Sequence record: M38285.1
Strand: one strand, 5' to 3'
Origin: a phage
DNA length: 751 bases
How positions within the stretch are numbered: the first letter of the stretch is position 1; the number at the start of each line of letters is the position of its first letter. This document shows, in pieces, positions 1-751 of this stretch. The notes beneath the pieces are model-generated. The model had not been told where the DNA came from. It saw only the letters and a list, made by a program, of their open reading frames with translations, and made no database searches. Position numbers and translations under genes: made by a program.

Positions 1-32
1 TTGATTCAGGTAACAGGGAGAAAGGCGCATGA
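1..32 (+). CDS. 3' end of an upstream gene, truncated by the window edge; in phage lambda this position is occupied by ninI/orf221 (Ser/Thr protein phosphatase), but 9 codons cannot confirm the product
   Basis: Seen in sequence: the frame starting at nt 3 reads gat tca ggt aac agg gag aaa ggc gca TGA (D-S-G-N-R-E-K-G-A-stop), with the stop at 30-32 overlapping the Q start ATG at 29-31 (ATGA). Established knowledge from memory: in lambda the gene upstream of Q overlaps it by 4 bp in this way. Too short for the supplied ORF track. Confidence 0.45.
   Translation, partial: DSGNREKGA
15..25 (+). promoter_or_regulatory. Shine-Dalgarno / ribosome-binding site for Q
   Basis: Seen in sequence: purine-rich AGGGAGAAAGG at 15-25, with the GGGAG core at 16-20 lying 8 nt upstream of the ATG at 29. 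This spacing and composition are typical of an E. coli-type RBS. It sits inside the end of the upstream ORF, consistent with translational coupling. Confidence 0.7.
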
Positions 33-652
33 GACTCGAAAGCGTAGCTAAATTTCATTCGCCAAAAAGCCCGATGATGAGCGACTCACCACGGGCCACG
101 GCTTCTGACTCTCTTTCCGGTACTGATGTGATGGCTGCTATGGGGATGGCGCAATCACAAGCGGGATTCGGTATGGCTGCATTCTGCGGTAAGCACGAAC
201 TCAGCCAGAACGACAAACAAAAGGCTATCAACTATCTGATGCAATTTGCACACAAGGTATCGGGGAAATACCGCGGTGTGGCGAAGCTTGAAGGAAATAC
301 TAAGGCAAAGGTACTGCAAGTGCTCGCAACATTGCCTTATGCGGATTATTGCCGTAGTGGCGCGACGCCGGGGGCAAGATGCAGAGATTGCCATGGTACA
401 GGCCGTGCGGTTGATATTGCCAAAACAGAGCTGTGGGGGAGAGTTGTCGAGAAAGAGTGCGGAAGATGCAAAGGCGTCGGCTATTCAAGGATGCCAGCAA
501 GCGCAGCATATCGCGCTGTGACGATGCTAATCCCAAACCTTACCCAACCCACCTGGTCACGCACTGTTAAGCCGCTGTATGACGCTCTGGTGGTGCAATG
601 CCACAAAGAAGAGTCAATCGCAGACAACATTTTGAATGCGATCACACGTTAG
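29..652 (+). CDS. Q: Late-gene antitermination protein Q (lambda-type Q antiterminator), complete, 207 aa
   Basis: Seen in sequence: complete ORF from ATG at 29 to TAG at 650-652 with a good upstream SD. The translation (MRLESVAKFHSPKSPMMSD ... CRDCHGTG ... CGRCKGVG ... QCHKEESIADNILNAITR) is recognised as phage lambda Q, with the same 207-aa length and a Cys118/Cys121/Cys144/Cys147 zinc-binding motif. Context agrees: the pR' promoter and qut-like elements follow immediately downstream. Identity is from memory, not a search. Confidence 0.95.
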   Translation: MRLESVAKFHSPKSPMMSDSPRATASDSLSGTDVMAAMGMAQSQAGFGMAAFCGKHELSQNDKQKAINYLMQFAHKVSGKYRGVAKLEGNTKAKVLQVLATLPYADYCRSGATPGARCRDCHGTGRAVDIAKTELWGRVVEKECGRCKGVGYSRMPASAAYRAVTMLIPNLTQPTWSRTVKPLYDALVVQCHKEESIADNILNAITR

Positions 653-693: not shown

Positions 694-729
694 TTGACTT
701 ATTGAATAAAATTGGGTAAATTTGACTCA
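694..729 (+). promoter_or_regulatory. Late promoter pR' (sigma70 type): -35 TTGACT at 694-699, 17-bp spacer, -10 TAAATT at 717-722, predicted transcription start near A729
   Basis: Seen in sequence: consensus -35 hexamer TTGACT, 17-bp spacer (700-716) and -10 TAAATT (4/6 match to TATAAT), located 42 bp after the Q stop. Established knowledge: lambda pR' lies immediately downstream of Q and has this architecture. The start site is inferred from spacing (7 nt after the -10) and could be off by 1-2 nt. Confidence 0.85.
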
Positions 730-745
730 ACGATGGGTTAATTCG
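700..745 (+). promoter_or_regulatory. qut (Q-utilisation) site: Q-binding element in the promoter spacer region plus the promoter-proximal sigma-dependent pause elements (-35-like TTGACT 722-727, -10-like AACGAT 729-734, predicted pause near +16/+17 = 744/745)
   Basis: Seen in sequence: a second TTGACT at 722-727 followed after 1 bp by AACGAT at 729-734 in the initial transcribed region. Established knowledge: at lambda pR', sigma70 region 2 rebinds a -10-like element in the early transcribed region and causes a pause at +16/+17, and Q binds DNA between the -35 and -10 elements to load onto the paused complex. The exact QBE boundaries are inferred, not read from a motif. Confidence 0.7.
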
Positions 746-751
746 CTCGGT
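729..751 (+). ncRNA. 5' end of the pR' leader transcript (lambda 6S RNA, the short terminated transcript made without Q); truncated by the window edge
   Basis: Inference from the predicted pR' start site and knowledge that the lambda pR' transcript terminates at tR' about 194 nt downstream unless Q modifies the polymerase. The terminator is outside this window, so only the first ~23 nt are present. Confidence 0.45.

Follow-up and report, generated by a model that had tools for sequence, protein, structure and literature searches.

The window analysed here, that is, the whole 751-nt stretch of sequence record M38285.1, consists of a single long open reading frame (29-652, plus strand) followed by a 99-nt non-coding tail. 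The product of this frame belongs to Pfam family PF03589 (Antiterm, E = 5.8e-56) and is identical to the reference Q protein of phage lambda at 203 of 207 residues (98%), the four substitutions being F102L, A103P, A111G and V205I. In AAA32253.1, 'protein Q [Escherichia phage Lambda]', every residue is the same, and this old record is the only one that matches the window's Q protein exactly; therefore, the window is an early stand-alone record of lambda Q. Solved structures of Q are available (4MO1 and 7UBJ-7UBN).

At the DNA level, the whole window is 98.5% identical to positions 43860-44607 of the lambda genome (J02459), and the segment 694-749 is the same as lambda letter for letter. The 9 substitutions and 3 single-base indels that separate the window from the reference all lie outside this segment (window positions 13-22, 163, 274, 283, 334-335, 360, 641, 662, 675/676 and 750) and include a GC/CG swap at 334-335. 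These discrepancies are probably early sequencing errors in a record from the 1980s. Numerous lambdoid phages and prophages match the window as closely as lambda does, and the window was matched in 1361 of 5426 complete E. coli genomes. No match above 98.5% was present among the phages and E. coli genomes searched. In addition, near-identical lambda Q/pR' DNA (loci L085-L125) was found on short or low-coverage contigs of assemblies labelled Pseudomonas, Shewanella, Oceanobacillus, Bradyrhizobium, Kitasatospora, Algoriphagus and others, and is almost certainly lambda DNA contamination.

Several minor signals lie inside the coding region. The DnaJ CXXCXGXG zinc finger of Pfam gives a match below threshold (23.3 bits against a cut-off of 32.7) over 359-484, corresponding to Q residues 111-152, and this match reflects the zinc ribbon of Q (CxxC...CxxC). 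On the minus strand, an exact TTGC-N6-TTGC box of the CII-activator type is found at 329-316, and a terminator-like hairpin with a T-run at 92-74, about 225 nt beyond the box. Each of the two is near chance level alone; together they fit the CII-dependent antisense promoter paQ of lambda.

The stretch from 694 to 751 is the phage lambda late promoter pR' with the qut (Q-utilisation) site, directly 3' of gene Q. The features of the window are as follows:

29-652 (stop codon included), plus strand: gene Q, late-gene antiterminator of 207 aa (open reading frame, Pfam, identity to lambda Q).
694-699, plus strand: pR' -35 hexamer TTGACT (promoter scan, published lambda pR' sequence, HK630 annotation).
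700-716, plus strand: Q-binding element (QBE), which is the -35/-10 spacer TATTGAATAAAATTGGG (published position; near-invariant in 44 lambda-type haplotypes).
717-722, plus strand: pR' -10 hexamer TAAATT (promoter scan, published pR' sequence).
722-727 (-7 to -2), plus strand: -35-like hexamer TTGACT, docking site of sigma70 region 4 in the Q-loading complex (sequence, published cryo-EM).
728, plus strand: 1-bp spacer C (sequence).
729-734 (+1 to +6), plus strand: -10-like hexamer AACGAT, sigma-dependent pause element (published +1, pause literature).
735-737 (+7 to +9), plus strand: GGG, discriminator-like, for sigma70 region 1.2 (published for lambda pR').
744-745, plus strand: pause positions +16 (C, scrunched) and +17 (G, backtracked) (counted from +1; positions published).
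747-751, plus strand: 3' arm of a conserved dyad, with TCGGT in this record but TCGTT in lambda and relatives (complementary to AACGA, 729-733).

The stop codon of Q ends at 652, 41 nt ahead of the pR' -35 hexamer. A promoter scan of both strands detected one sigma70-type promoter in the window, TTGACT-N17-TAAATT (694-722), and the HK630 record labels the equivalent of this segment 'promoter similar to coliphage lambda PR''. The spacer has exactly the sequence of the lambda QBE, which has been placed between the -35 and -10 elements of the promoter, and TATTGAATAAAATTGGGTAAA (window 700-720) is annotated as the Qut site in the HK630 and mEp213 records. The published start of lambda pR' is the first A of AACGAT, after 'tgactc', and the alignment offset places it at A729, corresponding to lambda 44587. 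AACGAT starts 12 nt past the start of the promoter -10 hexamer, in agreement with the published spacing.

Base 722 is common to TAAATT (717-722) and the second TTGACT (722-727). The first-pass annotation had described a TTGACT beginning on the last base of the pR' -10 element and followed after 1 bp by AACGAT, and direct reading shows these coordinates to be exact. It had also recognised the lambda pR' system, as borne out by the identity of 694-749 to lambda and by a layout that matches published pR'. Its placing of the pair in the initial transcribed region is right for AACGAT (+1 to +6) but not for TTGACT, which occupies -7 to -2, upstream of the start; the interval that it had flagged ends at 745, which is +17. 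The exact 13-mer composite of the two hexamers, TTGACTNAACGAT, occurs once in the window and in 0 of 200 dinucleotide-preserving shuffles, and with up to two mismatches in 7 of 200. Two other pairings were considered and discarded. With TTGACT (722-727) taken as the -35 hexamer of a second promoter, no TAnnnT hexamer is found at 16-18 bp, and AACGAT taken as a -10 hexamer with TTGAAT (702-707) would have a spacer of 21 bp.

AACGAT has the A2 and T6 of the -10 consensus, as sigma70-dependent pause elements require. By direct reading, G735 (+7), C744 (+16) and G745 (+17) fit the elemental-pause pattern of G at -10, a pyrimidine at -1 and G at +1, so that G735 doubles as the upstream G of the elemental pause site. 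A PF03589 Q gene upstream, a promoter with the QBE, AACGAT-GGG, and a -35-like hexamer set 1 bp ahead of AACGAT are all present, as in a lambda-type pR'/qut. We regard it as close to certain that the locus is lambda pR'/qut with one half for pausing and one for Q loading, and nothing in this analysis contradicts that reading. The lambda identity, the coordinates and the conservation come from this analysis, and the order of events on the DNA, given further below, comes from published experiments.

The published work on lambda pR' separates the two halves of the composite. A pause element consists of a -10-like hexamer and is 'often supplemented by' a discriminator-like sequence. Three contributors to the pause at lambda pR' have been described, namely sigma70 region 2 on the hexamer, region 1.2 on the GGG (+7 to +9), as well as the elemental pause site, which sets the pause position; of the paused species, that at +16 is scrunched and that at +17 is backtracked. 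Cryo-EM of the paused complex without Q shows sigma region 3 in contact with the DNA immediately upstream of the pause element. In the loading complex with Q-lambda (PDB 7UBM/7UBN), region 4 has moved off the flap-tip helix and onto the -35-like site, making -35-type contacts at the second TTGACT. This move is 'induced directly by Q', and residues 133-137 at the tip of the Q arm touch sigma residues 552-554. The same arrangement is given in an earlier published summary. Because region 3 holds this DNA when Q is absent, and Q moves region 4 there, TTGACT (722-727) is a determinant of Q loading. Thus, the -10-like half makes the pause and the -35-like half serves Q loading, and the composite as a whole is best regarded as a docking site in two parts for a single sigma70 molecule that has taken up a compact form specific to elongation.

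Published work on lambda pR' supports AACGAT as a sigma70-dependent pause element, the pause at +16/+17 (by experiments on the identical lambda sequence) and the need of Q for the sigma-dependent paused complex, all of which had been put forward in the first-pass annotation. It had also held that the composite programs the pause; this is correct for AACGAT but not for the composite, since the hexamer, the GGG and the elemental pause site set the pause. In short, its identification of the system was right, but it did not keep pausing and Q loading apart.

Loci encoding relatives of Q were collected from IMG/VR and GTDB genomes, and the regions 3' of Q were reduced to distinct haplotypes; the haplotypes are related to one another, so that counts overstate the number of independent observations. 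An IMG/VR search with a six-sequence Q alignment returned a near-identical lambda set as its best 80 loci, and more distant loci were reached with the divergent Q proteins of Pectobacterium and Kalamiella as queries. Besides 44 lambda-type haplotypes, 60 haplotypes of a long-type Q (254-277 aa) were compared. The long-type proteins are homologous to lambda Q (about 40-50% identity) and comprise PF03589 relatives in Kalamiella, Erwinia and Chimaeribacter prophages and in IMG/VR contigs; the branch includes loci L113, L117, L119 and L286-L364. In contrast to lambda Q, they carry an insertion of 50-64 aa with extra CxxC pairs, located between the parts that align with lambda Q residues ~113 and ~118. 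Their promoter is TTTAC[TA]-N17-TAATnT, with a spacer sequence unlike that of lambda, and is followed by 5 to 7 variable bases and then by the pause element, which is [T]AACGAT-GGG in 33 of the 60 haplotypes, AATGAT-GGA in 11 and AACAGT in 12, or a close variant.

The -10-like hexamer is kept in all 60 long-type haplotypes. TTGAC at 0-3 bp upstream of the pause element, in any register, was found in none of the 60, the best match being 4 of 5 positions, in 6 haplotypes. In addition, the residue aligned with E134 of lambda Q, which is a contact to sigma region 4, varies in the long type (E, I, K, R, D or F). From the comparison of sequences, the pause half is family-wide and the docking half for region 4 is confined to the short lambda-type Q clade, a distribution that is just what the structural division of labour predicts. 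Since the docking hexamer is confined in this manner, long-type Q proteins may load without it.

Phage lambda pR'/qut (44552-44607; PDB 7UBM/7UBN) is the same element with the same Q gene upstream, and only the flanks differ. The pR'/Q21 system of phage 21 (PF06530) resembles lambda in having a Q gene, a promoter, a QBE, a -10-like sigma-dependent pause element and a terminator; however, the fold of Q21 is unrelated to that of lambda Q, and two Q21 protomers bind. In the Q21 loading complex, region 3 stays upstream of the pause element, region 4 is disordered and no -35-like docking site is used. At pR' of phage 82 (Q82, PF06323), region 2 likewise binds a -10-like element before scrunching to an elemental pause site, but the polymerase pauses at +25/+26, GCC replaces the GGG of lambda as discriminator-like triplet, and Q belongs to a different family; here a -35-like element gives a separate early pause at +14/+15, of uncertain importance. 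As at lambda, an early -10-like hexamer is recognised by retained sigma70 at lacUV5 and in many E. coli transcription units, and these cellular pauses occur without a QBE, Q or an adjacent -35-like hexamer, indicating that the composite is dispensable for sigma-dependent pausing in general. It had been taken as the structural signature of such pausing, a claim that does not survive the disordered region 4 of the Q21 complex and the 60 long-type haplotypes that keep a pause element without TTGAC. The composite is specific to lambda and is no general mark of sigma-dependent pausing.

These observations also bear on the strongest alternative, according to which both hexamers program the pause and region 4 must sit on TTGACT for pausing at +16/+17 even without Q. 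Region 4 on -35-like elements can cause or strengthen early pauses, the additional +14/+15 pause at 82 pR' being an example, and holoenzyme is reportedly able to handle hexamer gaps of 0-3 bp in early elongation (Devi et al. 2010). However, in the Q-free lambda complex it is region 3 that holds the DNA just upstream of the pause element, the repositioning of region 4 is attributed directly to Q, and both the long-type haplotypes and the Q21 complex tell against a part for region 4 in the pause. We consider this alternative improbable and prefer the division into a pause half and a Q-loading half.

Among the 44 lambda-type haplotypes, TTGAC followed by T, C or A is kept in 41, and in the remaining three the core is altered at one position, giving TTAACC in two and TTGCCC in one. 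A single base pair separates the -35-like from the -10-like hexamer in 37 haplotypes, and two base pairs do so in seven, as in TTGACA-TC-AACGAT, TTGACA-CC-AATAAT and TTGACT-CT-AACGAT; loci L016, L020, L027, L040, L106, L110, L207 and L210 are natural lambda-type late promoters with the 2-bp gap. In early elongation, -35-like and -10-like elements 0-3 bp apart are reportedly usable by holoenzyme (Devi et al. 2010), and the natural 2-bp spacers fit that report, in which 0, 2 or 3 bp are said to work as well. The -10-like hexamer is mostly AACGAT, with A2 kept in 43 and T6 in all 44 haplotypes; the variants AATAAT, AATGAT, AACAAT, AAGAAT, AAAGAT and AACACT have both bases, and AGCGAT has G at position 2. 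The GG after the pause hexamer is conserved in the lambda type.

Among these 44 haplotypes, the positions between the promoter -35 hexamer and +8 vary hardly or not at all, and per-position variability is 40-50% from +9. The conservation up to +8 and its collapse from +9 show that Q, the QBE and the composite are inherited as one block, and this block is joined to different downstream modules. From +9 onwards, loci L004-L285 show at least four alternative modules, beginning with GGGTTAATTCGCTCG, GGATAAATGCACTCG, GGGTTAATGCCTTCG and AAGAATGGCAGATTT. Taken together, the sharp drop and the alternative modules place a mosaic junction right after the pause element. The composite is also present in Pectobacterium, Yokenella and Pseudocitrobacter prophages whose Q is only 56-86% identical.

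It could be argued that 722-727 resembles a -35 hexamer without serving as one, and is conserved only as the discriminator and start region of pR' or for want of divergence among close relatives. The segment does sit between the pR' -10 hexamer and +1, and most lambda-type loci are more than 95% identical overall, so that conservation alone is weak evidence. However, conservation ends abruptly at +9, yet 722-737 is fixed; Pectobacterium and Yokenella prophages, with Q as divergent as just described, still carry TTGACC or TTGACA; and the solved structure has region 4 in -35-type contact at this site. Chance or hitchhiking of TTGACT is unlikely because of the +8/+9 conservation boundary, the divergent hosts and the solved contacts, and we give a functionless likeness very little credence. 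As for an additional, ordinary sigma70 promoter downstream of pR' with TTGACT (722-727) as its -35 hexamer, the probability is next to nil: TTGACT matches the -35 consensus at five of six positions, but the hexamers 16-18 bp downstream (CGCTCG, GCTCGG and CTCGGT, 744-751) all lack A2 plus T6, AACGAT is only 1 bp away whereas sigma on core spans ~17 bp, and scans find pR' alone both in the window and in lambda, which agrees with the earlier statement that the hexamer pair is not a second promoter.

Apart from the -35-like half, the pause hexamer forms part of a dyad. In lambda, AACGA (+1 to +5, 729-733) is the reverse complement of TCGTT (+19 to +23). The dyad was tested on alignment A3, which comprises 58 distinct, mutually related haplotypes from loci L001-L364 and covers both Q clades. 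The arms change jointly: AATGA/TCATT is found in a lambda-type Yokenella prophage and separately in a long-type group, and other joint changes are AACAA/TTGTT (Pectobacterium) and AACAG/CTGTT. In AACAG/TTGTT and AGCGA/TCGTT, pairing is held via G.U. Overall, 92.4% of the dyad cells are paired, compared with 18-55% after offsetting the partner by 1-3 columns, and three of the five pairs show compensatory changes on both sides. Double-sided changes occur in 14 dyad cells, against 2.9 +/- 1.5 in shuffles, and 0 of 500 shuffles reach the observed value. With gaps moved into the loop, 91.4% of the cells pair, and none of 2000 whole-arm permutations reaches the observed pairing. The loop is 13 to 15 nt long (10 nt in one case), and this variable length speaks for a hairpin rather than a rigid site for a dimeric protein.

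The short helix has only modest stability (-2.3 to -7.4 kcal/mol, z-scores between +0.3 and -3.1). A count made to tell an RNA hairpin from a DNA dyad gave 3 G.U cells and 11 A.C cells, some of the latter arising from misalignment due to loop length. A shifted, G.U-rich register, given by the minimum-free-energy fold of lambda +1 to +50, was discarded, as relatives pair at only 19% at the +2 slide. The window itself has G750 (+22), where lambda and nearly all relatives have T; this G would break the A2-U22 pair of the dyad, which again suggests an error of the old record. A description of the dyad was not found in the searchable literature, a scope that does not extend to the lambda literature of the 1970s-80s. 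Judged by covariation, it is possible, though we would not count on it, that the late transcript begins with a conserved hairpin and that the pause hexamer, as part of it, is under a second constraint. If such a hairpin forms, it might shield the 26-kb late mRNA from 5'-end-dependent decay, or it might block backtracking once the RNA has passed the Q nozzle.

The window ends at +23. Further downstream, the sequence of the lambda locus shows a stem, CCCGAAAC/GTTTCGGG, and a T-run ending at ~+193. This stem and T-run match the 6S RNA/tR' terminator of lambda. A simple terminator scan misses the structure because its loop is long. In the window, no Rfam family was detected, even at E <= 1.

On the basis of the published experiments, events at the locus would proceed as follows. 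RNA polymerase sigma70 holoenzyme would initiate at A729. With the RNA at ~13 nt and sigma70 still attached, region 2 would rebind AACGAT on the non-template strand and region 1.2 would bind the GGG. The polymerase would then scrunch forward and stall at the elemental pause site, at +16/+17 (744/745). By that time, the nascent RNA would have loosened sigma region 4 from the beta-flap tip, and Q bound at the QBE (700-716) would contact region 4 and set it on TTGACT, 1 bp upstream of region 2; this placement would displace region 3 and bend the DNA. Finally, Q would take the flap tip and, with NusA, form a nozzle on the RNA exit channel, allowing the polymerase to read through tR' into the late genes.

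The composite is already known from genetics, biochemistry and cryo-EM and has been solved to atomic detail, and its occurrence in the lambda sequence is no novelty. The added value of this analysis is only comparative and lies in minor leads, namely the natural 1-bp and 2-bp spacings, the clade-restricted -35-like half, and the covarying dyad at the pause hexamer. What the composite represents is the DNA on which sigma regions 2 and 4 are kept in a compact, elongation-specific arrangement, and lambda pR' serves as a model both for an initiation factor, sigma70, acting during elongation and for a promoter-proximal pause acting as the loading platform of a processive antiterminator.
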